A stretch of DNA of 64,000 bases from Patescibacteria group bacterium (GCA_028865725.1 JAGWJP010000003.1:65697-129696); one strand, 5' to 3'; numbered from the stretch's first letter, positions 632 to 24,147 are shown. Notes: generated from the sequence alone by a model not told the origin. Translations and numbers: made by a program.

Positions 632-3061
632 TTATTTTTTGAACAAGATAATTTCTTTTGAACTTGTTACTCCAAGTTTATTCATTACTTCTATACGAAG
701 TGAGTTTTGTGTTTGAATTTCTGTTGAAGACACTGTGAGATGAATAGAAGAAGAGGGATTGGATATTTCTTGAATGAGTACGTTATTGAAAAAGATTTTT
801 ATTGATTGTGGAATCGCGTTGAAAGTACTTGAAATAGAAAATGGTGATGAAATATAGTCACCGTTTTTTGGATTATTAATAGAAATTTGAATAGGATTAC
901 TTTCTTGAGGATCTGTTTGTAGTATCGTATTGATGTAATTTTGAGGAAGCGTGTTTATTGAAGTAGCACTAAAATGTTTAGCCGCCCACTGTGCGACAGG
1001 CTGTTCCCAATTTTTAAATTGCGGATCAATGTTTGGATTATCAGGATAATTTCCTTGCGGATCATCCTTATTGACATAATATAGGATGGAATGTATTTCA
1101 TCATGTGATTTTCCATCACTACCAGTAATGGGTATAATATACTGTCCATTAAGCATGGGTTTTTTACTTGAAACAGGATTTGCCGGCGTAAATTTTTCAT
1201 TAGGACGAGTTGGTAATATTTGAGTATAAAAATCGTTGAGCATAGGTACTGCAGCAAGGATACTTCCCGCACTTTTTTGCATGGGAGTGTTGTCATTATT
1301 TCCTGCCCATATTCCTGTGACAATATTTGGCGTATAGGCAAATACCCATGCATCGCGGTAATCATTTGTGGTTCCTGTTTTTGCCGCGACGTCATATCCT
1401 TGAAAATAGAGGGGACCATGAGGCGAGAATAAACGCGAACGTGCACTATCGCTTGAAAGAATATCAGTGATTTCACGTGTATATTGCGGATCTACTACCG
1501 GGGTTACGGTATCATTGTAGGTTTCCAACACTTTTCCATCATTGGTAGTCACACTGAGAATAAATTGCTGTTTATGTTCTGTTCCTTCTTGAGAAAGAAT
1601 TGAATACGCGTTTACCATATCAATAAGTTTGACTTCTCCGCCCCCCAATACAAGAGAAAGTCCATAACGATTTGGATCATTTAATGTGGTAATACCGAAT
1701 TTTTGTGCCATATTAATGACATCCTTGATTCCTGCAAGATAGAGTACTTTTACTGATGGCACGTTTAAACTATTGCCTAATGCATCACGCAATGTGGTAG
1801 GTCCTCCAAATTGTCCATCAAAATTTTCTGGCCTATAGCTGTTGTGAGGATCTCCCGATGTATCAAATTCCGTGGGAAGGTCAAAAACAATTGTTTGAGG
1901 AGTATATCCTTTTGTAAACGCCGTAAGATAAACAAACGGTTTGAATGACGATCCTGGTTGGCGTAATCCTTGTGTAGCAACGTCAAAATTTCCATCATGA
2001 GCAACATCAAAATAATCATGAGAACCTACTAGACTGATAATTTGGCCTGTTTTTGGATCTTCACTTACCAACGCGGCGTTAGTTCCTTTGTAAAGTTCGG
2101 TATTACGTTGTGCTCCTCTTGCAACAACGTCTTCCGCAATTTGTTGAGTAGGCCAATCGAGAGTGGTAATGACATTTAATCCCGCGCTTTTTACATAATC
2201 TTCTCCATATTGTTTGTTAAGATAATCAATGACCATCATCACAAAATGTGGAGCACGAATAGAAACTTTTTGAGGTGCGAATGTAATAGATTCTTGAAGA
2301 GCATTATTATATTCCGTATCAGTAATCCAACCCAAATCCTTCATGATTTTTAATCCATAATGGGCCCTGTTTAACAATTCTTGTTTGTGGATTCCATACG
2401 GTGAATAGTAGGAAGGTGCTTGGGGAAGAGAGGCTAAAATGGCAGCTTCAGCAAGCGTAAGATCTTTTGCTGATTTATTGAAATAACTTTGACTTGCGGC
2501 TTCTATTCCATAAGCGTTGCCTCCATAAGGAATATCGTTCAAGTAGAGGTTCAAAATTTCATCCTTTGAATAACGGCGTTCTAATTTGTATGCTAGTATA
2601 ATCTCTTTTATTTTTCGTGTAATTGTTTTTTGAGGATCAAGAAGAGTATTTTTGACCAACTGCTGTGTAATTGTCGATCCTCCTTCAACTGTTTGTCCTT
2701 GTATAATGTCAGTTACCAGGGCACGAAGTGTTCCTTTTATGCTAAATGCCGAGTGATTGTAAAAATCCTTATCTTCTAAGGCGAGTGTCGCTTTTTTTAC
2801 ATAGTCCGGAATTTCATCGAATGCAATAGGAGTTCTTTTTTGGTCCCCATAAAGATCATAAAGAAGAACTTGTCCCGTCCTATCATATATTTTTGTCGTT
2901 TGAGGAGCAGGTTGATCGCTGAAATTATCAACTTGTGGAAGGGTGAGTGTCTCATACGTTATTAGGACAAATATTCCAAAAAAAATGAGAAAAGCAATAC
3001 ATACGCCCCCAATGAGGAGGAATTTCATAAACGACCTTTTTTTATTTTTTTGTGTAGTCAT
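632..3061 (-). CDS. class A penicillin-binding protein (bifunctional transglycosylase/transpeptidase, PBP1A-type)
   Basis: N-terminal TM helix. GT51 motifs (EDKDFYNH, IPYGGNAYGIEAASQSYF, QAPSYYSPY). Transpeptidase motifs SGSSFKPF (SxxK) and KTGTT (KTG). Confidence 0.92.
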   Translation of the reverse strand: MTTQKNKKRSFMKFLLIGGVCIAFLIFFGIFVLITYETLTLPQVDNFSDQPAPQTTKIYDRTGQVLLYDLYGDQKRTPIAFDEIPDYVKKATLALEDKDFYNHSAFSIKGTLRALVTDIIQGQTVEGGSTITQQLVKNTLLDPQKTITRKIKEIILAYKLERRYSKDEILNLYLNDIPYGGNAYGIEAASQSYFNKSAKDLTLAEAAILASLPQAPSYYSPYGIHKQELLNRAHYGLKIMKDLGWITDTEYNNALQESITFAPQKVSIRAPHFVMMVIDYLNKQYGEDYVKSAGLNVITTLDWPTQQIAEDVVARGAQRNTELYKGTNAALVSEDPKTGQIISLVGSHDYFDVAHDGNFDVATQGLRQPGSSFKPFVYLTAFTKGYTPQTIVFDLPTEFDTSGDPHNSYRPENFDGQFGGPTTLRDALGNSLNVPSVKVLYLAGIKDVINMAQKFGITTLNDPNRYGLSLVLGGGEVKLIDMVNAYSILSQEGTEHKQQFILSVTTNDGKVLETYNDTVTPVVDPQYTREITDILSSDSARSRLFSPHGPLYFQGYDVAAKTGTTNDYRDAWVFAYTPNIVTGIWAGNNDNTPMQKSAGSILAAVPMLNDFYTQILPTRPNEKFTPANPVSSKKPMLNGQYIIPITGSDGKSHDEIHSILYYVNKDDPQGNYPDNPNIDPQFKNWEQPVAQWAAKHFSATSINTLPQNYINTILQTDPQESNPIQISINNPKNGDYISSPFSISSTFNAIPQSIKIFFNNVLIQEISNPSSSIHLTVSSTEIQTQNSLRIEVMNKLGVTSSKEIILFKK

Positions 3062-3107
3062 TGATTATGTGATTATTATGTCTCATTTTATTTGTTTTAT
3101 CAATACC

Positions 3108-3131
3108 TAAAAACCCCGTTAGGGGGTCTTA
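3108..3131 (-). terminator. rho-independent terminator (minus strand) downstream of small acidic ORF
   Basis: Minus strand reads GACCCCC-TAAC-GGGGT followed by TTTTTAGG. The hairpin is nearly identical in style to the terminator at 21259-21282. Confidence 0.55.
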
Positions 3132-3158
3132 GGTATTGATCACTATGTATATAAATTG

Positions 3159-3356
3159 CTATATTTCCTCTTCGTCATCATTATCATCATCGTCTTCTTC
3201 CTCCTCCTCTTCGTCATCATTATCATCATCGTCTTCTTCCCCATCGTTTAGGGTTTCATCTTCTTCTGCCGGCTCTTCATCAAACCACTCTTCTTCCTCG
3301 CTACCTTGTCCTTTTTTTATGGTATTAGTAACAAATAATGAATTATACACTGCCAT
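3159..3356 (-). CDS. small, extremely acidic low-complexity protein (poly-Asp/Glu tail)
   Basis: 65-aa ORF ending in DDDDNDDEEEEEEDDDDNDDEEEI; contains a ~42-bp tandem duplication (cttcgtcatcattatcatcatcgtcttcttcc x2). A minus-strand terminator lies immediately downstream. The antisense frame gives a poly-Ser ORF, so the coding strand is uncertain. Confidence 0.35.
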   Translation of the reverse strand: MAVYNSLFVTNTIKKGQGSEEEEWFDEEPAEEDETLNDGEEDDDDNDDEEEEEEDDDDNDDEEEI

Positions 3357-3482
3357 AGTATTTGGGTCTTCTTACCGACCTTTTTGTTATTTTGTTCGTA
3401 TTGTAGTGTTTTTAATGACAGTGTCAAGATGTGAATATGAGGTCTTTAATATGTCATATTATGACAGTATTTTCTAGGGCAT

Positions 3483-3511
3483 TTGACAAATTTTAATAAG
3501 TTTATTAGAAT
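3483..3511 (+). promoter_or_regulatory. sigma70-type promoter upstream of nusA (TTGACA-N17-TAGAAT)
   Basis: TTGACA at 3483-3488, exactly 17-nt spacer, TAGAAT at 3506-3511, about 100 nt upstream of the nusA start. Confidence 0.6.
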
Positions 3512-3541
3512 GTATATTGAAGTATGGTTTGAATCCTGTTA

Positions 3542-3564
3542 ATGTCCGCCCGAGGGGCGGACAT
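3542..3564 (+). promoter_or_regulatory. perfect 10-bp palindrome/hairpin in nusA 5' leader (ATGTCCGCCC-GAG-GGGCGGACAT)
   Basis: Seen directly; GC-rich stem in an AT-rich leader, followed by a U-rich tract (UAUAGUUUUCUC). Possible attenuator or regulatory structure. Confidence 0.45.
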
Positions 3565-3612
3565 TATAGTTTTCTCAAGTATTATTCAACTAATTCCCAT
3601 ATATTTTTTATT

Positions 3613-4842
3613 ATGTTTGATTTAAAGAATTTTTCCTCTGCAATTGAACAAATAGCTGAGGAGCGTAATATTACTAAAGAATCTATCGTTGAGGCAATTG
3701 AAGCGGCTGTTGCGACCGCGTATCGCAAAGAGTACGGAAGCAAAGGAGAACACATTCGTGCAAAACTAGATCTTGAAACGGGAACGTTTCAGTTTTGGCA
3801 AGTGAAGACTGTGCTTGATGAGAGTATGGTAAAAACAGAAGAAGAGATTGCACAAGAGGCAGCAGAAGATTATATCCCCCACGAGCTACAGGAAGGTGAA
3901 GTAAAAAAATATGTGTTTAATCCAGAACACCATATTATGCTTGATGAAGCTCAAATAGATGATCCAAAGATTCAAGTGGGAGATGAAGTAACTTATCCTT
4001 TGGAGCCTCACGCTGATTTTGGACGTATTGCAGCACAAGCAGCAAAACAGGTGGTGTTGCAGAAAATTCGTGAAGCTGAAAAGACTACCGTTTATCAGGA
4101 ATATAAACAAAAGGAGGGAACATTGGTAAGCGGTCTTATCCAACGCATTGAAGGAAGAAACGTCTATGTTGATTTAGGAAAGACAGTGGGTATTATGTAT
4201 GCGAATGAAGGCATTTATGATGAACGATACCGTATTGGCGAGCGGCGACGTTTTTATATTCTTGCGGTACAGGAAGACATGAAAGGTCCTGCGGTTATTC
4301 TTTCCCGCGCTCATCCTCAATTTGTAGCAAAATTATTTGAAATAGAAGTCCCCGAGATAAATGATAATATTGTAGAAATTAAAGCAATTGCGCGTGAACC
4401 AGGAAGTCGCACCAAAATAGCAGTCGTAACTCATGTAGAGGCTATAGATCCTATTGGTTCATGTGTGGGTCAGAAAGGAACACGTGTGATGGCGGTTATG
4501 AACGAATTAGGAGGAGAAAAAATTGATATTATCGCATGGTCTGAAGATCCGGCCACATTTATTACTAATGCGCTTTCTCCCGCAAAAGTACAAGATATCG
4601 AGATCCACCCTTATCGAGAAGCGTTGGTATATGTGGCCCCGGAACAAATCAGCCTTGCTATTGGAAGAAGTGGACAAAATGTACGTCTCGCTGCGCGTCT
4701 TACAAATTGGAAGATTGACGTTCGTTCCTCGGAGAAACCAGAAGAGTCTGTAGAGGGGGGGGTGGCGGCCATTTCTGAAGAGGGAGAACAGGAAACAGTT
4801 GTTACTTCGGGAGATTCGGAACATAAAAACGAAATAGAATAA
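3613..4842 (+). CDS. nusA: transcription termination/antitermination factor NusA
   Basis: NusA N-terminal domain motif AIEQIAEERNI...EAIEAAV..AYRK, S1 region and KH domains (DPIGSCVGQKGTRV; AIGRSGQNVRLAARLT). Start chosen at the internal Met (MFDLKNF), which matches the NusA N-terminus. Confidence 0.93.
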   Translation: MFDLKNFSSAIEQIAEERNITKESIVEAIEAAVATAYRKEYGSKGEHIRAKLDLETGTFQFWQVKTVLDESMVKTEEEIAQEAAEDYIPHELQEGEVKKYVFNPEHHIMLDEAQIDDPKIQVGDEVTYPLEPHADFGRIAAQAAKQVVLQKIREAEKTTVYQEYKQKEGTLVSGLIQRIEGRNVYVDLGKTVGIMYANEGIYDERYRIGERRRFYILAVQEDMKGPAVILSRAHPQFVAKLFEIEVPEINDNIVEIKAIAREPGSRTKIAVVTHVEAIDPIGSCVGQKGTRVMAVMNELGGEKIDIIAWSEDPATFITNALSPAKVQDIEIHPYREALVYVAPEQISLAIGRSGQNVRLAARLTNWKIDVRSSEKPEESVEGGVAAISEEGEQETVVTSGDSEHKNEIE

Positions 4843-15769: not shown

Positions 15770-15779
15770 TCTTGGCGGC

Positions 15780-16740
15780 CTACAAAATGGGGCTCACCCA
15801 TCTTTCTTTATAGTTACACTTTGCCGTAGACTATGAGTTCCAAAAAGGAACCAGGCAAGAAGCAAAGATAGGAAACTTGAATGTATTCCTGGAAGAATTT
15901 TTAAATTTTCGATGGAAGGCACCAGTGCGATGGTTGACGCCTTTTTTCGAAAATTTGAAAACGACGCATGGCGGCGCGTTTAAAAGTTTTTTTCCTGTTT
16001 CGTCCTTTAAGGACTCATCAGTGTCGATTCACATCGACAGACAGGGGGAGAGGAGCGCCTCTCCCACGGACTCGTTTTTCAACAAGTCCTAGTATGATTT
16101 TCTTGGCTTCTGATTTGGCGAGGAATCAGAAGCCGGTTGCGTGTCCGCCCACGGCTTTTTGCAGGAAAGCTCCTGTCGAGACATAGCGCTGCAGGTCTCG
16201 ATTCTGGCTTTGCAACATCACCCATGAACCAGTCGCGACGTGGCTCAAGGGGGTTACACCACTCCATTTGGAAATTGCACCCACCACCCTTGGTAGTCGG
16301 GCGCAACCTCTCTTCTCACACTTGGCGTTTTTAGGGAGTGTGAGAGGAGTGGCTATGGCACTGCGGGAACCCTTCGCCCCGCTTTATAGCTAAACTTACC
16401 CCCGGGTGTGCGGCGGTGAGTTTAGCGCGCGCCGGATATGCCGGCGGGGCGTGTGCCATACACCGTTTTTCAGCCTTTACTGCGAGCGGTCGGTTGCCGC
16501 ACGCGGCACGCGGAGTATCCGCATTTCGTTCTTCACCTCCTTTCTTGTCTAATTACCACGAGAGGGAAGCGAGCTAAGGATTGCGGAGTGTGGTACCTGA
16601 TTCGGATAGTGGGTGTAGTATTAATTCCCAACCGTCAGGGCTTCACAGTTCCACACGTGCTTAGTTCACTTGCGTCTCGTGGCAACTCGCGCTTGACCTT
16701 CTTTCATTGTGCTGCTTGCATTATAGCAAATAGAATTTAA
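15780..16740. ncRNA. ~0.9-kb GC-rich ORF-free island with multiple stable stems; candidate large structured RNA(s), identity unresolved
   Basis: GC about 60-65% versus about 42% in flanks; six-frame ORFs all <100 aa with implausible composition. Perfect hairpins include GGGAGAGG-AGCG-CCTCTCCC (16046-16066) and GCTAAACTTACC...GGTGAGTTTAGC (16388-16426). Strand unknown. Confidence 0.4.
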
Positions 16741-16927
16741 TTTGTCAAGCATAGCTGACATATTGTAGAAAAATACTAGGTTTTTCTTAATATTTACGTA
16801 TAATTTCTATGTCCGAATTTTCTAACACTTTTTGATTTCATATTCATAAGTGAAACTTATGTGTAAACATAGATAAGATAAGGTGTGTATACTAGGTACA
16901 TATTTGACACAAAGGGCCAAGGGAAAC

Positions 16928-16956
16928 TTGACCAAAATATCAGTATGTGCTATAAT
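16928..16956 (+). promoter_or_regulatory. near-consensus sigma70 promoter TTGACC-N17-(TGc)TATAAT
   Basis: TTGACC 16928-16933, 17-nt spacer ending TGC, TATAAT 16951-16956. Confidence 0.6.
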
Positions 16957-16962
16957 TTATTC

Positions 16963-17256
16963 GAGTAACGTTGGAGGACAATCGAAATGAACTGGTAGGA
17001 TGAAAAGACTGGCGGGTTAAGAGGGTTTAGGGGAGGTGTAAAAAACATCGCTTGCACCCGCTCTCTCCGTCCAGTATTTTTCACTCTTTTCATTTTTCGA
17101 GTTTTCCAACAAGAAAGGAGGAGTCGCCCATGCTCTGGTAACATAGGCGACGATTTAAAAGGAATGGCGGGGGGGCGCGGAAAAAAGAAAAAGGTTCTTT
17201 ATTCGTATGCCCCCAAGCACCAGAAAGGCCGTGTGGAGACACGGCCTTTATTTTTT
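16963..17256 (+). ncRNA. candidate small RNA (~290 nt), bounded by strong promoter and intrinsic terminator, no ORF
   Basis: Starts ~7 nt after the TATAAT box; ends at the terminator listed at 17226-17256 (stem GGCCGTGT/ACACGGCC + TTTATTTTTT). Only 3-codon ORFs inside, although one has a perfect SD (AAAGGAGG-N7-ATG CTC TGG TAA). Confidence 0.45.
17226..17256 (+). terminator. rho-independent terminator (plus strand)
   Basis: GGCCGTGT-GGAG-ACACGGCC-TTTATTTTTT. Confidence 0.7.
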
Positions 17257-17278
17257 ATGTGGTAATCTTCCTCCAGGC

Positions 17279-18058
17279 TTATTGATTGTATTGTTCGGCG
17301 GCATCCCACGCGAGATTAAAAATTACTCGAAACGAGGAGGCAATATCATTGCTTTGGATCGTAACACCAAGCAACTGCTCGCCATAAGAGATTAAGACGA
17401 GGTAGTCCTGACCATATACAGTGACACTACTTGTAAAAGGGAACTTATCTTTTGGAATATAGCGCGCTTCGCGTAACACGTTTTCGCTTGTGGCACCTGT
17501 GAGAGGGCCTTCAGCGCGGGTGTAAATGACTTTGTTGCGAAGTTTTTTATTTGAACGCTCTTTGCTGTAGGTTGATTCATAGTTCGGGAAGACGCGGAGG
17601 AGTTCATCAAGAGGGGTGAACCCCACAATCTCTTCCGTGACCGTCTCCGCAAGACGCAAAAATTCTTCTTGCATCGCGATAATACCTTCTTTTCCTTCGT
17701 AAAATTTTACTTTTGGTCTATTTTCCGTGAGATTGAAGAGCGCTTTGAGTTCAGGAATAATTTCTTGGAGGTAGGTGTGTTTGAGCGCAATGTCCGCTTT
17801 CTCTTTTTCAAGGAGACGATCAAGCTGTTCAGGGGATTCCGCGGAAAACAATGTTTTTTTTCCTGATTCTGCAGTGGTAACAAGTCCGTTTTTCATGAGG
17901 GAGTCGAGAATCACGTACGTGGTAGGGCGTTGTACCTCTGCTTTTTTCGCGATATGTTGTACCGTGGCCTGTCCTAATTCAAGAGTTGCAAGATAGACTT
18001 TTGCTTCTTTTTCCGAGAGGCCGAGTTTTTCAAGATTGCGTTCAAGGGGCGTATTCAT
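17279..18058 (-). CDS. TrmB-family transcriptional regulator (sugar-responsive type)
   Basis: N-terminal wHTH LGLSEKEAKVYLATLELGQATVQHIAKKAEVQRPTTYVILDSLMKNGLV typical of TrmB; C-terminal effector domain. Confidence 0.75.
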   Translation of the reverse strand: MNTPLERNLEKLGLSEKEAKVYLATLELGQATVQHIAKKAEVQRPTTYVILDSLMKNGLVTTAESGKKTLFSAESPEQLDRLLEKEKADIALKHTYLQEIIPELKALFNLTENRPKVKFYEGKEGIIAMQEEFLRLAETVTEEIVGFTPLDELLRVFPNYESTYSKERSNKKLRNKVIYTRAEGPLTGATSENVLREARYIPKDKFPFTSSVTVYGQDYLVLISYGEQLLGVTIQSNDIASSFRVIFNLAWDAAEQYNQ

Positions 18059-18068
18059 GGAAACGCTA

Positions 18069-18656
18069 TTAGTGTGCGGCATCAAATCGTTGCTCAACAA
18101 TCTCCCAGTTTACGGCATTCATAAATGCGTTAATATAGTCTGCCCGTTTGAGGCCGTAATCTGAAATATATGCATGCTCAAAGACATCGAGGACAAGGAG
18201 AGGTGTCGCGCCTGCAAGATGGCCCATATCATGTTCAGTAACCCATGTGTTGAAGAGATTTCCTGTTTTGCTGTCTTTATAAAGAATAGTCCATCCAATG
18301 CCGCGCAGTGCTCCCGTAGCGCGAAAGTTTTTTTCCCAGTGCTGAAGACTGCCGTATTGTTCTGTGAGTGCGCGCGCAAGTGGAGCATTTTCATTGCGAT
18401 TCGCTCTCTCCTTTACTATGTTTTCAAAGTAATATTCGTGCAGGCGCATTCCGTTGTATTCCCAACCAAATCTTCGTGTTAATTCCGCGTATTCCGGAGT
18501 TCCTGTTTTTTCTTCGTTGCGAAGCACAGAAAACATATCGATGAGTTTATTCGTATTTGTTACATATCCTTTGTAAAGTGCGAAGTGATTTGTAAGAAGG
18601 GCATCACTGAATCCCTCCGTGCCTAACAATGCATCAAATGATTTTGGTTCGTACAT
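18069..18656 (-). CDS. Fe/Mn superoxide dismutase family protein
   Basis: DVFEHAYI (Asp/His metal ligands), GIGWTIL, QHW motifs; the N-terminal HHxKHH motif is divergent (TNHFALYKGYV). Confidence 0.75.
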   Translation of the reverse strand: MYEPKSFDALLGTEGFSDALLTNHFALYKGYVTNTNKLIDMFSVLRNEEKTGTPEYAELTRRFGWEYNGMRLHEYYFENIVKERANRNENAPLARALTEQYGSLQHWEKNFRATGALRGIGWTILYKDSKTGNLFNTWVTEHDMGHLAGATPLLVLDVFEHAYISDYGLKRADYINAFMNAVNWEIVEQRFDAAH

Positions 18657-18706: not shown

Positions 18707-21232
18707 CTATTGAAGTGCTTCGTAGAGAAATTGTCCGTACATGATCTGGGATGGTGCGGTTTTCCCATGGGCTATGCTTTCAGAAAGTTCGATGAGATTG
18801 TGCGTGAGGGCACGATCAATCTTTTTTGTCGAATCTTCTTGTGTGCGCGCCCAGGCGAGTAGGGTATCGAATTCATGCTTACCGCGTTCCCTATCAAGGA
18901 TTTGTTCACGTTCCCATTTTTTTTCAAGGAGTTCTAAGGAGGCAGAAAGGAAAGGGAAAAGATCCGATGCGCCAATAAGATCGATTGGTATTCCGTGCAG
19001 TTCCGCGTTATGGGCGCTGCTTATGGACCGCGCGGCTCTTATATCGGCGTTTAAACTTTCATCATATTCATCTTTCCGTTTTTGAAGCGTTGCCACCGAC
19101 GCGCGTATGCGTTCCTGTTCTTTGCGGTTACGCTCTATGTCTGCGCGTAATGCGGGTATACCAAGTTTTTCTTCTTTTAGGAGCCGTTTTCCCCCCTTAA
19201 ACACTTTAAGTGATTCAGTAAGGATATTGATTTTTTGTTGCAGAGCTCTCAAGGCAGACTCTATGGCATTGATTCTTGTATGCGCGTCTTGTAATGTGTT
19301 TTGCTCTTCGGGAGTGAGCGGCTTGGATGCATGATGAGCGTTTCTCAGGAGCAATTTCCACTGTTGTACGCGAGGATCTGCTTGTATTTCATTCCACATT
19401 TTTTCAAGTATGTGAACAATGTCGCCGTTCGCGGGAGGTAGGTTTTTGGATATCAATTCAATCTTGAGCTGAAGGTCGAAGATATTCGCAGCCTGTGTTC
19501 CAGACGTACGCTGAAAATTTGGATCTTGTTCTAAGGATGCTATTAAGAACGGGCTTACATGACTATCAAAGTCTTCTTTTGATTGCCAGGTGCGGTCTAC
19601 GCGTATGGCCTCCCATTCTTGTTGTGCCTCTGCGGCGGCAGTGGTGTGCGTGCGGGCAAATTTTACGAGACGACGCATTACATCAGTCAAGGCGTAGGAA
19701 AAGATCGCCGATTGGTCATCTCCAAATTCGTGGCAGAGTTCATGAAGATAGGTTGCGATCACATCATCGATTTCTCCTGTGCTCAGGGAATCCTTACTAA
19801 TCCAGACAAAATCTTCATCATAACGCCCTGCAAGGTAGGGGTGTTTTCCCGTAAAAACATGAATTTCTTTTGCGCGCAGATCGGAAATACGGGCAAGCGC
19901 CCCCCTCGCTTCGTGCTCAAGCCCCAATAGCCGCATAGTATGGTATATCGTTTGTGTGTCGGTTTCTTGAAGTATTTGTTGCGCATAACGCTTGAGGCAG
20001 GCGATTCGTTCTTTAATTTCCGGAGAGGGGGCATGTTCATAAAGTTCAGTGATTTCTTCATGCATCGTTGATGCGCACATCATTCCTGCGCGGCTCATAA
20101 ACTCATGACAGGGGATAAACCCGAGTCCTTTGAGCGTTTCCAAAAAATCCTTTTCATCGAGTGCGATATAATTTCGGTCAAAGGAAACCACAAGGCCGAG
20201 CGAATTGCATCGGTCGACCACTGTGCGCAAAAATTCTTTTCCAAACCATTTTTTCCTATCAAAGGACATATTATTTTCGGGAACGGCATAGAATGGTTCT
20301 AGGATTTTAAGTGTGTTCATAAGATCTTCTGGTTCCATGGAATCCACAAGAAAAGGAAGGAAAATCTGGGTAACTTCATTTTCAGTGATAATATCTCTGT
20401 CTCGCGAAAGATTTATTGTTCCCCATTCCGTTTCCGGGGTCTCATGCGACCAACAGGTAAAATGAGGAAGTGTATTCCATGTGTCGCGCACGTCGTAATG
20501 GATGCGTTGGCCGTTTAAGTAAAAATTTCCAGGCGTACCCATGTGCAATGAAAACCCTCCTTGTTCATTGTCGAAGGCGGGGTTTTGAAAGTCAGGGTTG
20601 GTGTCATGATAAAAAAGATCACGCGCGTCAATAAATGTTTGTACCGTTCCCTGCTCGCTGCTTACGAGTTCTAATGTGTTTCCTTCTAGAGCCTCGTCTC
20701 GGGCGGTAAGTTTTACGTAGAGTCCTCGCAGGGATGTTTTTTCCGTAGAACCCACAGGGGGCGTATCGAGGTAAAAATCGAGTATCCAATCTTGTGAAGA
20801 AAAGCGTACTTTTGAAAACCCAAAATCGCGCAACATGTGAAGCGCCATGATTTTTGTGCCTTCATGGTGTCCCCCTCCCGATTTTTTCGGGTTTTCTTTA
20901 TATCCGCCTCCCAAATGAAGAAGACGGGTGTAGGGATATTCTGCGATTCCCCGAATGACCACTACGGATCTGTCTGGTTTTTCATCTGTTTCAAATTCTA
21001 GGCCGTCAAGCGTGAAGTTGTTCGCATCGAAAAAATTTTGCCACGCATCGCGCGCTACGCGTTCTCGTGTCCACGGTGTTTTAGACATATAATTTTCGAG
21101 AATGCCAAGGTAGTAGCCGTGTTCCAATTTGTGTTCGAATTCCTGATTTTCTCGACCGCGGAAATGCCGTGTTAATGACTCATTCATGAATTGCAATGGT
21201 ATTGATAAGTATGTCTTTAGTGTACACGGCAA
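18707..21232 (-). CDS. large hypothetical multidomain protein (841 aa): GHKL-ATPase-like N-terminal motifs, central HExxH, C-terminal coiled coil
   Basis: ARDAWQNFFDA (QNxxDA N-box-like), GGGHHEGTKIMAL (Gly-rich G2/G3-like), LHELCHEFGDD (HExxH). Residues ~620-800 are heptad-rich and charged. No confident family assignment. Confidence 0.6.
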   Translation of the reverse strand: MPCTLKTYLSIPLQFMNESLTRHFRGRENQEFEHKLEHGYYLGILENYMSKTPWTRERVARDAWQNFFDANNFTLDGLEFETDEKPDRSVVVIRGIAEYPYTRLLHLGGGYKENPKKSGGGHHEGTKIMALHMLRDFGFSKVRFSSQDWILDFYLDTPPVGSTEKTSLRGLYVKLTARDEALEGNTLELVSSEQGTVQTFIDARDLFYHDTNPDFQNPAFDNEQGGFSLHMGTPGNFYLNGQRIHYDVRDTWNTLPHFTCWSHETPETEWGTINLSRDRDIITENEVTQIFLPFLVDSMEPEDLMNTLKILEPFYAVPENNMSFDRKKWFGKEFLRTVVDRCNSLGLVVSFDRNYIALDEKDFLETLKGLGFIPCHEFMSRAGMMCASTMHEEITELYEHAPSPEIKERIACLKRYAQQILQETDTQTIYHTMRLLGLEHEARGALARISDLRAKEIHVFTGKHPYLAGRYDEDFVWISKDSLSTGEIDDVIATYLHELCHEFGDDQSAIFSYALTDVMRRLVKFARTHTTAAAEAQQEWEAIRVDRTWQSKEDFDSHVSPFLIASLEQDPNFQRTSGTQAANIFDLQLKIELISKNLPPANGDIVHILEKMWNEIQADPRVQQWKLLLRNAHHASKPLTPEEQNTLQDAHTRINAIESALRALQQKINILTESLKVFKGGKRLLKEEKLGIPALRADIERNRKEQERIRASVATLQKRKDEYDESLNADIRAARSISSAHNAELHGIPIDLIGASDLFPFLSASLELLEKKWEREQILDRERGKHEFDTLLAWARTQEDSTKKIDRALTHNLIELSESIAHGKTAPSQIMYGQFLYEALQ

Positions 21233-21258
21233 AGAGAAAAAAACAATGAGATGATATA

Positions 21259-21282
21259 GAAAAACCCCGTTTCGGGGTCTGT
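21259..21282 (-). terminator. rho-independent terminator (minus strand)
   Basis: Minus strand GACCCCG-AAA-CGGGGT-TTTTTCT downstream of the 111-aa ORF. Confidence 0.65.
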
Positions 21283-21288
21283 ATTACC

Positions 21289-21624
21289 TCACTTCTTTTT
21301 GATTTTTTGCGCCACGATGAGCATATCGAGCTCATGGGCTATCATCGCCCGGGTATTTTTTTTGGAACAGTCCCTGCCATAAATAATACTTTCTCCATGG
21401 CGGGGACACTGGAAGGCAAGGATGTTTTCCTTTCCCTCACGCGAAAGCGTGAGCGTCACCCAGCACCCAAGCCCCGGAATTCTAAAAGGGACCGTCACGA
21501 ATTTTTTTTCTTTCCGATCGGGGGACGATACAGAGAAACCAATTTTTTCACTCGCAATGGCATCTAGTATTCGGGAAATCTTTCCTTCCTCACTTCCTCT
21601 CATACATCTTGCAATCCTTCCCAT
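21289..21624 (-). CDS. hypothetical protein (111 aa)
   Basis: ORF with its own terminator; Cys/His content (C7, C54, C73, H76, C86) may hint at metal binding. Confidence 0.45.
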   Translation of the reverse strand: MGRIARCMRGSEEGKISRILDAIASEKIGFSVSSPDRKEKKFVTVPFRIPGLGCWVTLTLSREGKENILAFQCPRHGESIIYGRDCSKKNTRAMIAHELDMLIVAQKIKKK

Positions 21625-21778
21625 CTTGCCTCCTTCGTTACTCCCTTAGATATCTTGCGTCACCATTTTCTGGGGACGAGTTCCAAGATATCTGAGAGAG
21701 TAGTATCAAGCTTGATTAGCATAACCTATAGTATAGTTTATGTCAATCCCTTTGTTTTGGTAACTATCCCTTGACAAC

Positions 21779-22096
21779 ATGTACACAAAAAATATAATAA
21801 ATAGGACATCCAGTTTAATAAAATCGTTTTTGTGTAGAAAAAAACGAATTATGGAAAATCCTCTTAAAATTCAAGCACAACTCAATGAGTTGAATAGGCA
21901 ATCTACCCCCGATGGACAACCCGTTGTAAATGAATGGATTGCATTTCAGGGTTATTCAGCACTTACTTACGCCCAGCTAGAAGCGTCTTCTCCTCTTCCG
22001 CGTTTCAACCCCACAATGGGAATAGTAGTAAAAACTTTTTTGAATACCCGTACGGGAGAAATAAAGACTTTTAATGCTTACATGTTTGAAAACTAA
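21779..22096 (+). CDS. hypothetical protein (passenger ORF inside IS; alternative start at 21851, MENPLK)
   Basis: ORF within IS boundaries, opposite strand to the transposase. Confidence 0.4.
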   Translation: MYTKNIINRTSSLIKSFLCRKKRIMENPLKIQAQLNELNRQSTPDGQPVVNEWIAFQGYSALTYAQLEASSPLPRFNPTMGIVVKTFLNTRTGEIKTFNAYMFEN

Positions 22097-22097
22097 C

Positions 22098-22379
22098 ATG
22101 GTAAACAAAGAATCCAAAGCTCAAGAGAAGGCGCAACTGGATGTTACCCCAGAATGGGGACAGGCGGAGGGGCAGAAACTTCCGTTATCGGATTTCAGCA
22201 CATTTCAGAACTTTGTTTATGCGACTCTCTTTGTTATCGGAATTGCCTTGATTACACTTATTATTCAGTATTTCACAGCAACGCAGGCAACATTTGAAGA
22301 TTTAAAAGATAAGGTTGTTCAACAAAGTGCTAAAATAGACGCACTGACCGATGAAATCCATCGACAAAAAGGTTTTTAA
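22098..22379 (+). CDS. hypothetical single-pass membrane protein (passenger ORF inside IS)
   Basis: TM helix FVYATLFVIGIALITLIIQYF; C-terminal coiled-coil-like segment. Confidence 0.4.
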   Translation: MVNKESKAQEKAQLDVTPEWGQAEGQKLPLSDFSTFQNFVYATLFVIGIALITLIIQYFTATQATFEDLKDKVVQQSAKIDALTDEIHRQKGF

Positions 22380-22828
22380 ACAATTTGTCCTGTGAATAAC
22401 TTTTCTGGTAAAATGAAGATAACAAAAAACCACTCTACTTCGTATACCATCGCAGACAGTTTAGTATTCCTGACTGTTTGCAGGTCTAGCTCCATCAAGG
22501 AGCAAACACATTCTCTGGACTCACTTCTAAGGGGGAGACCAAGAAAGTCGATGATATACGAAAGAGAGTGGTTTTATTTTATAAAACAAAACTCCAAAGG
22601 CGGACGCTTTGTAGGTTTCAACGACTTACGCCATTGAAAGCCCTACAAAAAGTTTGGAAGCTTCGTAGGGTTTCCCCTAACAAAGCACCCACCTTTGGAG
22701 TAATACCTAGGGTTGAGATGTCCGCCGTCTCTGCTTCCAAAGAGACAATAAGTTTTCAATATTTCCTTTATTATACACCCGCTTTATTATAAAAGCAAAT
22801 ATGGACTTCCACACCCTCCTCAATAAAG

Positions 22829-23632
22829 CTATATCCTCCCCATCAACCCCTCGAAAATCTCGAAAGAAGGCTTTGCGTAGCGGAAAGAAAACTCGTTCAC
22901 GTAAGATTGCAAATACTTCCGAGAAACCGAGTGATATGTCCCCGAAAGAGAACGCTTGAGCTGGCTCCAAAACCCTTCAATGGTATTGGTATGCGTAGCT
23001 CCTCGTGCATACTCTTTTTTCCAGTGATTGACGGATGAGTGCGTAAACCCTAGTTTTGTTGTTTTCTTGTACACCCCGAACTTATCAGACACGATAGCAG
23101 ACCCAGTAGCAATGTTCTTTTTAATCTCTTTCAAGATAAGGTGCGTTTCACGGGCAGATAAGGTTTTTGTCTTTACCGCACCGCCACGAGATACCATACC
23201 GAATACAGGCGTTTTGTCCTTACCACCCTTTCCTCCTTTCCGATAGCCACCGATGTATGTTTCATCCACTTCCACGATACCAGAGAGCTTGTCGCCATCT
23301 TGTGCCATCAACGCACGCACTTGATGGGCAATCCTCCACGCTGTCTTGTAGGTAACTCCAAGCTGACGCTGTAGTTCTTTGGCAGATACTCCATTCTTAG
23401 AGGATGCAAAGAGAAAGATAGCATAAAACCATAGCGTAAGAGGCGTAGAGGACTTTTCAAAGATTGTTCCTACCAAAGGATGAAGCTGTTGCCCTTGAGG
23501 ATTGGCATAGCACTTACGCCCTTTTACGAAATAGTACTGTTTAGCGTTCGGGTACTTCTTAGCAAAGATATAGTCTAAACACGCCTTTTCATCAGGAAAC
23601 TCTTTTTTGAAATTATTGATTGTGTAGTTCAT
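22829..23632 (-). CDS. IS1595-family DDE transposase (ISXO2-like)
   Basis: VEVDETYIGG, IVSDKFGVY, HTNTIEGFWSQLKRSLSGTYHSVSRKYLQSYVNEFSFRY (DDE_Tnp_IS1595 signature). Confidence 0.9.
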   Translation of the reverse strand: MNYTINNFKKEFPDEKACLDYIFAKKYPNAKQYYFVKGRKCYANPQGQQLHPLVGTIFEKSSTPLTLWFYAIFLFASSKNGVSAKELQRQLGVTYKTAWRIAHQVRALMAQDGDKLSGIVEVDETYIGGYRKGGKGGKDKTPVFGMVSRGGAVKTKTLSARETHLILKEIKKNIATGSAIVSDKFGVYKKTTKLGFTHSSVNHWKKEYARGATHTNTIEGFWSQLKRSLSGTYHSVSRKYLQSYVNEFSFRYAKPSFEIFEGLMGRI

Positions 23633-23664
23633 ATGCTTAAGTCTAGCAAATGCACTACTTGGTG

Positions 23665-24147
23665 TCAAGGGATAGTTACCTTTGTTTTTTTGTGCATGGG
23701 GTAGGCGAGTGCGCCACAAAGTGCGATTGCGAGCGCATCACTTTCGTCATCGTATTTCGGTTTTTTTGCGAGCGCGAGTACTTTGAGCGTCATGGTTTCG
23801 AGCTGTTTTTTGTCAGCACGCCCATACCCTGTGATGTATTGTTTTACTTCAAGGGGAGTGAATTCGAGAATGGGAATATTTTGTTTTTGAATGAGAAACT
23901 TTATGACGCCACGCATTTCCGTGACTTCAAGCGCAGTTTTCTGGTTTTTTGCAAAGAATATCTTTTCGATGGCAGCAGCCTCTGGTTTATGGGTGGCAAT
24001 AAGCGAGGTAAATTCTTTTTCAAAACGGTGAGAATCCTGTGGGTATTCAAAAAGTCCTGACGCTGACGCACGAAATGCGGACCCTTCTTTATGGACAATT
24101 CCAAATCCTATGCGCGTGGTGCCAGGATCGATACCGAGAATAGTCAT
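23665..24147 (-). CDS. ruvC: crossover junction endodeoxyribonuclease RuvC
   Basis: MTILGIDPGTTRIGFGIV N-terminus, catalytic acidic residues. The last ~9 codons and the stop are supplied by the TSD/IR of the IS. Confidence 0.9.
   Translation of the reverse strand: MTILGIDPGTTRIGFGIVHKEGSAFRASASGLFEYPQDSHRFEKEFTSLIATHKPEAAAIEKIFFAKNQKTALEVTEMRGVIKFLIQKQNIPILEFTPLEVKQYITGYGRADKKQLETMTLKVLALAKKPKYDDESDALAIALCGALAYPMHKKTKVTIP

Follow-up and report, generated by a model that had tools for sequence, protein, structure and literature searches.

What kind of protein is encoded by a long gene that matches no described family and lies among housekeeping genes in a member of the Patescibacteria? The gene, at 18707 to 21187 on the minus strand, was found in DNA of a Patescibacteria group bacterium (GCA_028865725.1 JAGWJP010000003.1:65697-129696); "the window" here means the whole stretch of 64,000 nucleotides that was analysed. 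A preliminary description, made from the sequence alone, had noted GHKL-ATPase-like motifs, an HExxH motif and a coiled coil in the product, had found the family not identifiable, and had considered the gene, a small neighbouring open reading frame (ORF) and an insertion sequence (IS) as a possible defence system. The results place the protein in a previously undescribed family and depict it as cytoplasmic and multi-domain. Tentatively, and with slightly more doubt than trust, it is read as a dimeric enzyme that works alone and whose zinc-protease site would be gated by a nucleotide-dependent closure of the GHKL type.

The family is as hard to assign as first described. Searches of the protein and its small neighbours with Pfam, NCBIfam and PADLOC returned coiled-coil noise only; no model in these databases covers the family. 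A fusion of a GHKL domain with a zincin was not found in the literature searched.

Domains and conserved motifs of the protein

The AlphaFold (AF2) model of the protein has a predicted local distance difference test score (pLDDT) of 89.6, and the evidence on folds given below refers to predicted structure. The gene and the parts of its product are as follows.

18707..21187, minus strand: gene for the 826-aa protein, start ATG at 21187, stop at 18707-18709
20618..21115, minus strand: GHKL/Bergerat-fold-like domain, aa 25-190 (AF2 pLDDT about 90, Foldseek, BFVD)
21023..21064, minus strand: N-box-like motif ERVARDAWQNFFDA, aa 42-55
20930..20968, minus strand: strand equivalent to the G1 box, SVVVIRGIAEYPY, aa 74-86, without the conserved Asp
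20849..20923, minus strand: lid or G2-box-like segment LLHLGGGYKENPKKSGGGHHEGTKI, aa 89-113, containing GGGHHEGTKI
20384..20617, minus strand: beta-rich domain, aa 191-268, from the secondary structure of the model
19883..20383, minus strand: helical middle domain, aa 269-435, likewise from the model
19583..19882, minus strand: minimal-zincin-like sub-domain, aa 436-535
19715-19744, minus strand: HELCHEFGDD, aa 482-491
18710..19582, minus strand: variable C-terminal helical or coiled-coil extension, aa 536-826

The predicted structure supports a Bergerat/GHKL fold for the N-terminal region. The top Foldseek matches in the PDB were exclusively GHKL proteins, namely TRAP1 (6e-5), Topo VI-B (about 1e-3), MORC4/MORC2 (3-6e-3) and ParE (7e-3), with Hsp90-N, GRP94 and PhoQ-CA lower in the list. 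The alignments to MORC2/4 and TRAP1 span 320-540 columns with template-modelling scores that are low, at 0.2-0.35. An S5-type transducer domain, which in the MORC/GHL subgroup comes after the GHKL domain and bears a phosphate-sensing Lys or Arg, was not recognised with confidence from these alignments or from the beta-rich domain with its RDR triad. The best Foldseek matches of all were models of phage proteins in the viral set BFVD (E 9.5e-14 to 3e-9), and these were followed by viral models named "histidine kinase-like ATPase", RIIA-like and "HSP90 family".

GHKL enzymes use an Asn for Mg2+, an acid for catalysis, and a Gly-rich lid with a Lys for phosphate contacts. Counterparts of these residues are among the most conserved of the family. 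Conservation was computed over 192 domain copies from about 180 proteins and, separately, in a set of 43 close homologs. In and just before the N-box-like motif, which corresponds to the QNxxDA sequence of the preliminary description, W39, R46, D47, Q50, N51, F52 and D54 are conserved at 95-98% (N51 98%, D47 97%, D54 96%), as in the N-box of the GHKL superfamily. N51 is the putative Mg2+-binding Asn, and D47 occupies the general-base position with Asp in place of the usual Glu; position 47 is Asp in the cellular clade and Glu in the phage clade described below. The Gly-rich G2-type stretch noted earlier is present at aa 104-118, and the lid follows the pattern G93-x3-K97...A-G105-G-F-G108-E109-G110-x-K112 with 90-99% conservation (G93 97%, K97 93%, G105 99%, E109 96%, G110 98%). 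G169, part of a G-[NST] strand motif, is conserved at 98%. The residues D47, Q50, N51, D54, G105 and G110 are invariant in the 43 homologs, so that the motifs go well beyond a chance occurrence. Conservation of the motifs among homologs, named beforehand as a check, was thus found, with the N-terminal motifs kept in 96-99% of the 192 copies.

The second conserved centre is the HExxH motif, noted earlier within LHELCHEFGDD and located at aa 481-491. H482, E483, H486, G489 and D491 are invariant among close homologs (H482, E483 and H486 in 43), and the two His and the Glu are conserved at 76-80% over the 192 copies, with the losses mostly in the second copy of tandem proteins. As in zincins, the motif lies in a helix and is conserved in the family. 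D491, five residues past the second His, is replaced by His in some members, for example HEAAHKAGPHGN, and is the putative third ligand; such a swap is as expected for a metal ligand and supports, at the level of sequence, the view that HExxH behaves like a metal site.

The isolated sub-domain was modelled with pLDDT 91 as a small beta-sheet, a helix ending in HExxH and a second helix. Foldseek gave no significant match to it in the PDB, the top five including Wss1 (probability 0.57, E 0.76) and selecase (probability 0.28). In Pfam, WLM was the only recurrent weak match, found in 11 of 75 and in 1 of 18 members (none reaching the gathering score, with 6.6e-4 as the best E), and a profile of the sub-region against the PDB placed Wss1p first (E 0.35) and the zincin-like 3e11, with HEIAHHFGIDD, at E 2. 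Separately weak, these results together point to a minimal WLM/SprT-like zincin as the predicted fold. With the WLM/Wss1/SprT zincins (5xbn Wss1, 4qhi selecase, 3e11) the sub-domain shares the beta-sheet, the helix end with HExxH and the second helix, as well as the local pattern LHExxHxxGx[DH]..F (HEIAHHFGIDD in 3e11, HELCHEFGDD here). It differs in that the putative third ligand stands five residues after the second His, compared with six in the Wss1 alignment, and in that it is embedded in a larger helical domain; the similarities to minimal zincins are sub-significant.

Between the two centres, the beta-rich domain ends in a triad R262-D263-R264 (nt 20396-20404) that is conserved at 92%, 95% and 100%, respectively, and is also found in the phage homologs. 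The helical middle domain is common to the phage family up to about aa 374. The C-terminal region was modelled as long helices (aa 537-825) and shows heptad-type hydrophobic periodicity in 59 of 263 sequence windows, while the remainder of the protein shows it in 4 of 507. The charged, heptad-rich coiled coil described earlier is therefore confirmed in its heptads and long helices, while its charged fraction is just slightly raised (0.29 vs 0.27). This tail of 290 aa is poorly conserved and is missing from short forms of the protein, the conserved core being aa 1-530; searches of the tail against the PDB and Pfam gave nothing beyond coiled-coil noise. No signal peptide or transmembrane (TM) segment was found in the window protein.

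Distribution, architectures and phage relatives

A word-indexed search gave 48 homologs, nearly all from the candidate phyla radiation (CPR) and one from a metagenome-assembled genome (MAG) of Nanoarchaeota. They occur in two length forms, a long one of about 800-840 aa and a short one of about 500-560 aa. An exhaustive profile search of 1.84 billion representatives retrieved 2,061 proteins at E <= 1e-3, 395 of them at E <= 1e-30. In a pattern-limited scan of 185,579 GTDB species genomes the module was found at 49 loci, in CPR phyla, DPANN archaea, Melainabacteria (among them Gastranaerophilales and Vampirovibrionales), Myxococcota such as Polyangiaceae, Planctomycetota and others. Because it is rare and patchy across phyla, the gene is an accessory and not a core gene.

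Architectures were counted in 180 sampled proteins.

Bare module: 69 of 180
Module with a long C-terminal extension, the type of the window protein: 32 of 180
Module with an N-terminal extension: 56 of 180, including 34 that have a single TM-like segment
Two tandem modules, in proteins of 1,100-6,000 aa: 23 of 180

No Pfam domain was found in the extensions or in the giant proteins. In some members a coiled coil is added, either N-terminally or C-terminally. The 34 proteins of the TM sub-class have a basic N-terminal tail of 35-85 aa, one TM-like segment (aa 69-87 in P0110, aa 82-104 in P0154) and a coiled-coil-like linker of about 150 aa, followed by the module. When the positive-inside rule was applied to 37 TM-anchored members, basic residues were equally frequent on both flanks of the segment.

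All 23 large proteins (>1,000 aa; P0062, P0067, P0077 and P0078 are examples) carry two tandem modules, and the copies are asymmetric. In 18 of them the first copy keeps HExxH..G.D and the second is degenerate there or lacks the sub-domain; in the other five the match did not reach the HExxH region in one or both copies. Every GHKL-type motif is kept in both copies. One giant, P0077 (3,392 aa), is flanked by a polysaccharide-synthesis cluster and by a region with genes for SMODS, a type I restriction-modification (R-M) system, an integrase and Fic, a single case.

The family has relatives in phages. The family phrog_6077, a phage family of no known function, was matched by 73 of 75 cellular members (best E 6.6e-15), and hhalign of the family core with ORF34 of phage Ab18 gave a probability of 96.7% (E 4e-10) over 289 columns, covering aa 27-374 of the family. 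The window protein and its closest ortholog gave no match to phrog_6077 at E <= 0.01. A tblastn search with member P0110 gave weak matches in 72 phage genomes; the same search with the window protein gave no match in phages, and none was found by a pattern scan of IMG/VR. The link to phages emerged through PHROGs, a better-matching family member and the fold search. Two phage proteins serve as examples.

2929-4020 of locus L063: ORF34 of Pseudomonas phage vB_PaeS_PAO1_Ab18, YP_009125137.1, 363 aa
3049-4197 of locus L064: protein of Erwinia phage pEp_SNUABM_01, QEQ95023.1, 382 aa

Both carry R-E-x-x-Q-N-A-x-D, LLLG..TK.DD...G.FGEG.K and RDR, and neither has HExxH; ORF34 of Ab18 has a sub-threshold HATPase_c match (E 1.2e-3). 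The phage-type family comprises more than 836 unannotated clusters of about 360 aa, Pseudomonas prophages included. Common to phrog_6077 and the cellular family are R-[DE]-x-x-Q-N-x-x-D, the lid, RDR and the first part of the helical domain, and the Asp of the G1 box is missing in phages too, where the sequence is S-x-G. The phage proteins, of about 360 aa, differ in having neither zincin nor coiled-coil tail. On these sequence comparisons the cellular family appears as the phage-type module to which a zincin sub-domain and lineage-specific extensions are added, and the window protein would be classed as a relative of phrog_6077 and not a member, because of its extra zincin and tail.

The surroundings of the phage genes are early genes or genes of DNA metabolism (DNA ligase, exonuclease, NrdC). 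One member of the phage family is automatically annotated as "RIIA lysis inhibitor", and a minority of the phage-type homologs (P0301, P0305, P0352 and others) have a precomputed Pfam match to PF25856, which may be an existing entry covering part of the phage family.

RIIA of phage T4, a poorly understood counter-defence protein, consists of an N-terminal GHKL domain and a variable C-terminal domain (PMC7824862). It resembles the present family in having an N-terminal GHKL-type domain followed by a variable part (Foldseek E about 1e-4), and its lid motif SSKAESNDFIGGFGLGSK aligns in register with the lid of the family. It differs in having no zincin and in giving a weak HATPase_c_3 match (E 1.6e-4, below the cut-off), of which there is none for this family. 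As a relative T4 RIIA was rejected, hhalign giving a probability of 1.7%, which is not significant.

A possible nucleotide-gated protease or scaffold

How might a GHKL-like domain and a zincin work together? The explanation preferred here is the stand-alone dimeric enzyme introduced above; we infer its nucleotide binding, its dimerisation, the coupling of its domains and its protease activity. Two N-terminal GHKL-type domains would meet in a nucleotide-dependent manner, as in other GHKL machines. The coiled coil would hold the dimer, a role that tandem duplication or a membrane-anchored coiled coil may take in other lineages. The RDR loop could act as a phosphate sensor that senses closure, and the resulting conformational change would gate the zinc-protease site, which would cleave a protein substrate. 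The protein is taken to act alone because it has no conserved neighbours and because its gene has its own upstream hairpin and promoter-like element. Its biological role may lie in stress or proteostasis, or in conflict between organisms.

The likeness to the GHKL ATPases (Hsp90/TRAP1, Topo VI-B, MORC2/4, GyrB/ParE and MutL) lies in the same predicted fold and in the way in which the N-box Asn, the acid four residues before it, the Gly-rich lid and the G-[NST] strand motif are ordered and spaced. The dimer dependence of these ATPases is echoed in the family by tandem duplication and coiled coils. The differences are the missing G1 Asp, an Asp in place of Glu as the base, the lack of a match to the HATPase_c and HATPase_c_3 profiles, and the fusion to a zincin.

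Several observations weigh against the preferred explanation. The whole clade lacks the Asp with which the G1 box (DxGxG) contacts adenine; in the equivalent strand, V-R-I-S-G-K-G-E-Y, which was matched by eye with the canonical box, 86% of the copies have Gly at position 80, and position 79 is S, E, R or K. Binding of ATP is not assured because this Asp is absent. The window protein itself departs from the family at two conserved positions, with H108 in place of a Gly (90%) and P85 in place of an Asp. In about 19% of the sampled members one TM segment precedes the module, and ATP could not be the ligand in these forms if the module is extracytoplasmic there. Every similarity to zincins is individually non-significant (E 0.35-0.8; Pfam matches below the gathering score).

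To these is added that no sequence profile connects the N-terminal domain to any GHKL family. Among 93 family members no HATPase_c-type Pfam match reached the threshold. Searches by phmmer and with profiles of the whole protein, of the core, of the N-terminus and of the cellular and phage N-termini together gave no GHKL or otherwise informative match among PDB sequences; matches to designed TIM barrels in this search were rejected as an artefact of a 20-residue segment that is repeated four times there. Local hhalign of the N-terminal profile with the N-domains of E. coli GyrB, yeast Hsp82 and E. coli MutL, for which approximate sequences were used, scored as did shuffled controls; despite this, the alignments landed in the expected motif register. 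A search with the N-terminal profile for Pfam-annotated bridges in a collection of 5.8 billion proteins retrieved only short unannotated fragments. Because no profile reaches a known GHKL family, the domain is called GHKL-like, by predicted fold and by motif, and ATP binding is regarded as putative and unproven. The GHKL-ATPase motifs of the preliminary description thus hold as regards the fold (Foldseek) and the conserved N-box and lid, and fail as regards the G1 Asp and the profile match.

Some of these observations form the case for a pseudo-ATPase scaffold, which is rather unlikely and yet the best placed of the alternatives. In such a protein the GHKL-like domain would have lost nucleotide binding and would serve for the binding of a ligand or protein or for oligomerisation, with the zincin as the sole catalytic centre, constitutively active or regulated by non-nucleotide means. 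The G1 position without a conserved Asp in both the cellular and the phage clade, the lack of a HATPase_c-type profile match at threshold and the TM-anchored forms, which might expose the module outside the cell, all fit this alternative. A parallel in its favour is sacsin, for the Hsp90-like domains of which ATP binding is described as debated (PMC9880540). The residues of the putative nucleotide site argue on the other side. The Mg2+ Asn, the acid at -4 and the Gly-rich lid with its Lys are the most conserved in about 190 copies, and the exchange of Asp and Glu at the base position preserves the chemistry. The nucleotide-site residues are also kept in both copies of the tandem proteins, which is hard to explain for a mere scaffold.

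Gene neighbourhood and biological meaning

Does the setting of the gene tell what the protein is used for? The features around the gene are the following.

21759..23680, strand not assigned: intact IS1595-family element with transposase, inverted repeats and target-site duplication, incidental to the gene
21289..21624, minus strand: 111-aa ORF with a CPxHG motif, a clade-restricted positional neighbour
21188..21288, minus strand: intergenic region with a terminator-like hairpin and then a weak promoter-like TTGTTT-N16-TACACT
18069-18656, minus strand: Fe/Mn superoxide dismutase (SOD) gene, downstream of the large gene
17279-18100, minus strand: TrmB-type regulator gene, downstream of the SOD gene

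The large ORF, 18707-21232 on the minus strand, gives 841 aa when it is read from a TTG, as in the ORF listing. An ORF of this length is present, as the preliminary description stated, and the protein is probably shorter, with 826 aa from the ATG at 21187, the TTG version being an over-extension. This start is preferred because the 826-aa version equals, over its full length and at 100% identity, the hypothetical protein P0001 from a Patescibacteria MAG, because the alignment with the nearest orthologs (50-63% identity, 828-829 aa) begins at the Met of this ATG, and because TTG 21232 sits in the spacer of the promoter-like TTGTTT-N16-TACACT. The hairpin upstream, GC-rich with a T-run at 21280-21262 and located downstream of the 111-aa ORF, agrees with the separate terminator assigned to this ORF earlier. 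Three syntenic relatives have an equivalent hairpin and a conserved promoter-like TTGGTA-N16-TATAAT, 13-21 nt 5' of the ATG.

The order of genes on the minus strand is RuvB, LTD-domain protein, YebC, RuvC, the IS, the 111-aa ORF, the large gene, Fe/Mn-SOD and TrmB-type regulator. The same order without the IS was found in four relatives (L001, L002, L011 and L012). The gaps between the large gene, the SOD gene and the TrmB gene are <=50 bp, and the trio is kept in L001, L002 and L012; in L011 the SOD gene also follows the large gene and the contig ends there. The large gene and the SOD gene may be co-transcribed, because no terminator-like site was found between them on the minus strand. The GC content at the gene, 0.43-0.47, equals that of its surroundings, and a compositionally foreign island was thereby ruled out.

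Homologs at 30-40% identity lie in unrelated contexts, next to BacA; UvrA, UvrB and UvrC (P0017); HSP20 and cyclophilin; YbeY, DnaX and HIT; or HisRS. In a survey of up to two flanking ORFs on each side at 33 loci, giving 113 proteins, no Pfam family occurred in more than four and no enrichment of defence genes was found; the PADLOC matches were generic helicase and nuclease domains at one or two loci each. PADLOC-DB v2 gave for the window protein only a coiled-coil-type match to LmuB (E 0.011, aa 644-812), and nothing for the small ORFs. The earlier suggestion of a defence system was not upheld by these results: the protein has no PADLOC match and no recurrent partner, the block kept in the four relatives is one of housekeeping genes, and distant homologs do not share it. 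Nothing supports a multi-gene anti-phage defence system.

A role of the single protein in conflict is another matter. The protein could be an immunity or attack factor in the interaction of episymbiont and host, predator and prey, or phage and host; we consider this distinctly unlikely. It would account for the patchy spread over distant lineages some of whose members are episymbionts or predators (CPR, DPANN, Vampirovibrionales/Melainabacteria and Myxococcota), for the module inside giant proteins of 1,300-6,000 aa, one of them beside SMODS, type I R-M and Fic genes, and for the large homologous family of phages and prophages. The Foldseek resemblance to RIIA, a phage counter-defence protein (PMC7824862), also fits. 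These arguments meet the lack of a signal peptide or TM segment in the window protein, the lack of PADLOC matches and of defence enrichment among the 113 neighbours, the stable housekeeping block with ordinary GC content, and the pattern scan of IMG/VR, in which no match was found.

At least as unlikely is a DNA-associated protease, in which a clamp like that of MORC or Topo VI-B would be combined with a Wss1/SprT-like protease to clear trapped or cross-linked proteins from DNA. The structural matches do include DNA-clamping GHKL proteins (Topo VI-B, MORC2 with DNA, ParE), the best zincin leads are WLM/Wss1, and the phage homolog has a DNA ligase gene on one side and an exonuclease gene on the other. 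Repair genes are found as neighbours, with RuvC and RuvB here and in the four relatives, UvrA/UvrB/UvrC at P0017, and RecJ and helicases in the survey, but the neighbours are inconsistent, as BacA, HSP20/cyclophilin, tRNA synthetases and polysaccharide genes are also among them, and in the small, densely packed genomes of CPR genes for repair are frequent. No domain for DNA binding was detected, and such a role suits the TM-anchored and giant forms badly.

Positional orthologs of the 111-aa ORF, with 13 invariant columns that include CPxHG, are present in the four relatives L001, L002, L011 and L012, and the ORF was not found next to more distant homologs at any locus examined. It is not a family-wide partner of the large gene, because it is conserved in the immediate clade only; as a partner in a system it was rejected on account of its absence beside distant homologs and of the hairpin and promoter-like element that separate the two genes.

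The IS is real and belongs to IS1595: its transposase matches DDE_Tnp_IS1595 (Pfam E 3.1e-40), its terminal inverted repeats of 25 nt are 92% complementary, and an 8-bp target duplication, TTTGTTTT, stands at 21751-21758 and 23681-23688. It occurs as a single copy in the window. Between the element and the small ORF lie 135 bp, and between the element and the large gene about 570 bp; the gene is thus near the element, not abutting it as had been stated. The insertion is recent and incidental, because of the 8-bp target duplication and the absence of the element from syntenic relatives, and on the same two observations mobilisation of the gene by the IS was rejected.

A two- or multi-gene anti-phage system in which the 111-aa Cys/His ORF takes part and which moves with the IS is therefore very improbable and largely refuted by the comparative data, since the positional conservation of the ORF in four relatives and the nearness of the IS stand against the absence of the ORF beside all more distant homologs examined, the conserved hairpin and promoter-like element between the two genes, an IS with its own target duplication that is missing in relatives, and the empty PADLOC result.

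Some further features of the IS were recorded. The transposase is on the minus strand, and two small plus-strand ORFs are found at 21779-22096 and 22074-22379, the second of which encodes a hydrophobic segment. A promoter-like site with the perfect sequence TTGACA-N16-TATAAT at 21771-21798 begins within the left inverted repeat. The insertion point is just within the 3' end of ruvC (23665-23688, minus strand), of which the last four codons and the stop (V-T-I-P-*) are supplied by the right end of the IS. Read-through of the empty site predicts an ancestral RuvC ending in ...TKGLT*, of nearly equal length (159 aa, as the RuvC of L001); because the predicted ancestral C-terminus is almost the same in length, RuvC is probably still functional.

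Beyond the TrmB-like gene, a hammerhead ribozyme of type III was found at 15992-16047 on the minus strand (Rfam RF00008, 48.7 bits, gathering score 48.5, E 3e-9), with a complete catalytic core CUGAUGA...GAAAC...GUC. It is located between the tRNA-synt_1b and TrmB-like genes in an ORF-poor interval, 15770-17278, of about 1.5 kb with no ORF >100 aa, in which no other Rfam family or tRNA was found. The counterpart of this interval in L001 holds ORFs of 219 aa and 308 aa.

What the protein means for its family depends on the domain coupling. Both folds are known; their combination and the clade are unannotated wherever searched, despite about 2,000 sequence clusters. If the domain coupling is as proposed, the family would form a new class among proteases gated by energy or by a nucleotide, different from FtsH, Lon and Clp of the AAA+ type; it would have arisen when a minimal zincin was added to a GHKL module that phages also carry, and regulated proteolysis would gain a mechanistic class. 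Its users would be CPR, DPANN, Vampirovibrionales and Myxococcota, sometimes within giant proteins. This reading as a whole, with the family as the first GHKL-type nucleotide-driven clamp coupled to a zinc protease and with its use by episymbiotic and predatory microbes for conflict or anti-phage immunity, is rather improbable. If the protein is a pseudo-ATPase scaffold with an ordinary protease, the interest would be modest. Natural variants can guide biochemistry, namely the tandem proteins with two ATPase-like sites and one protease site, the Asp or His at the third ligand and the Asp or Glu at the base position. If the gating holds, a functional hypothesis open to test would also become available for phrog_6077, which is common in Pseudomonas phages and prophages. 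The family with the zincin is concentrated in CPR and DPANN, organisms with a largely uncharacterised gene content.

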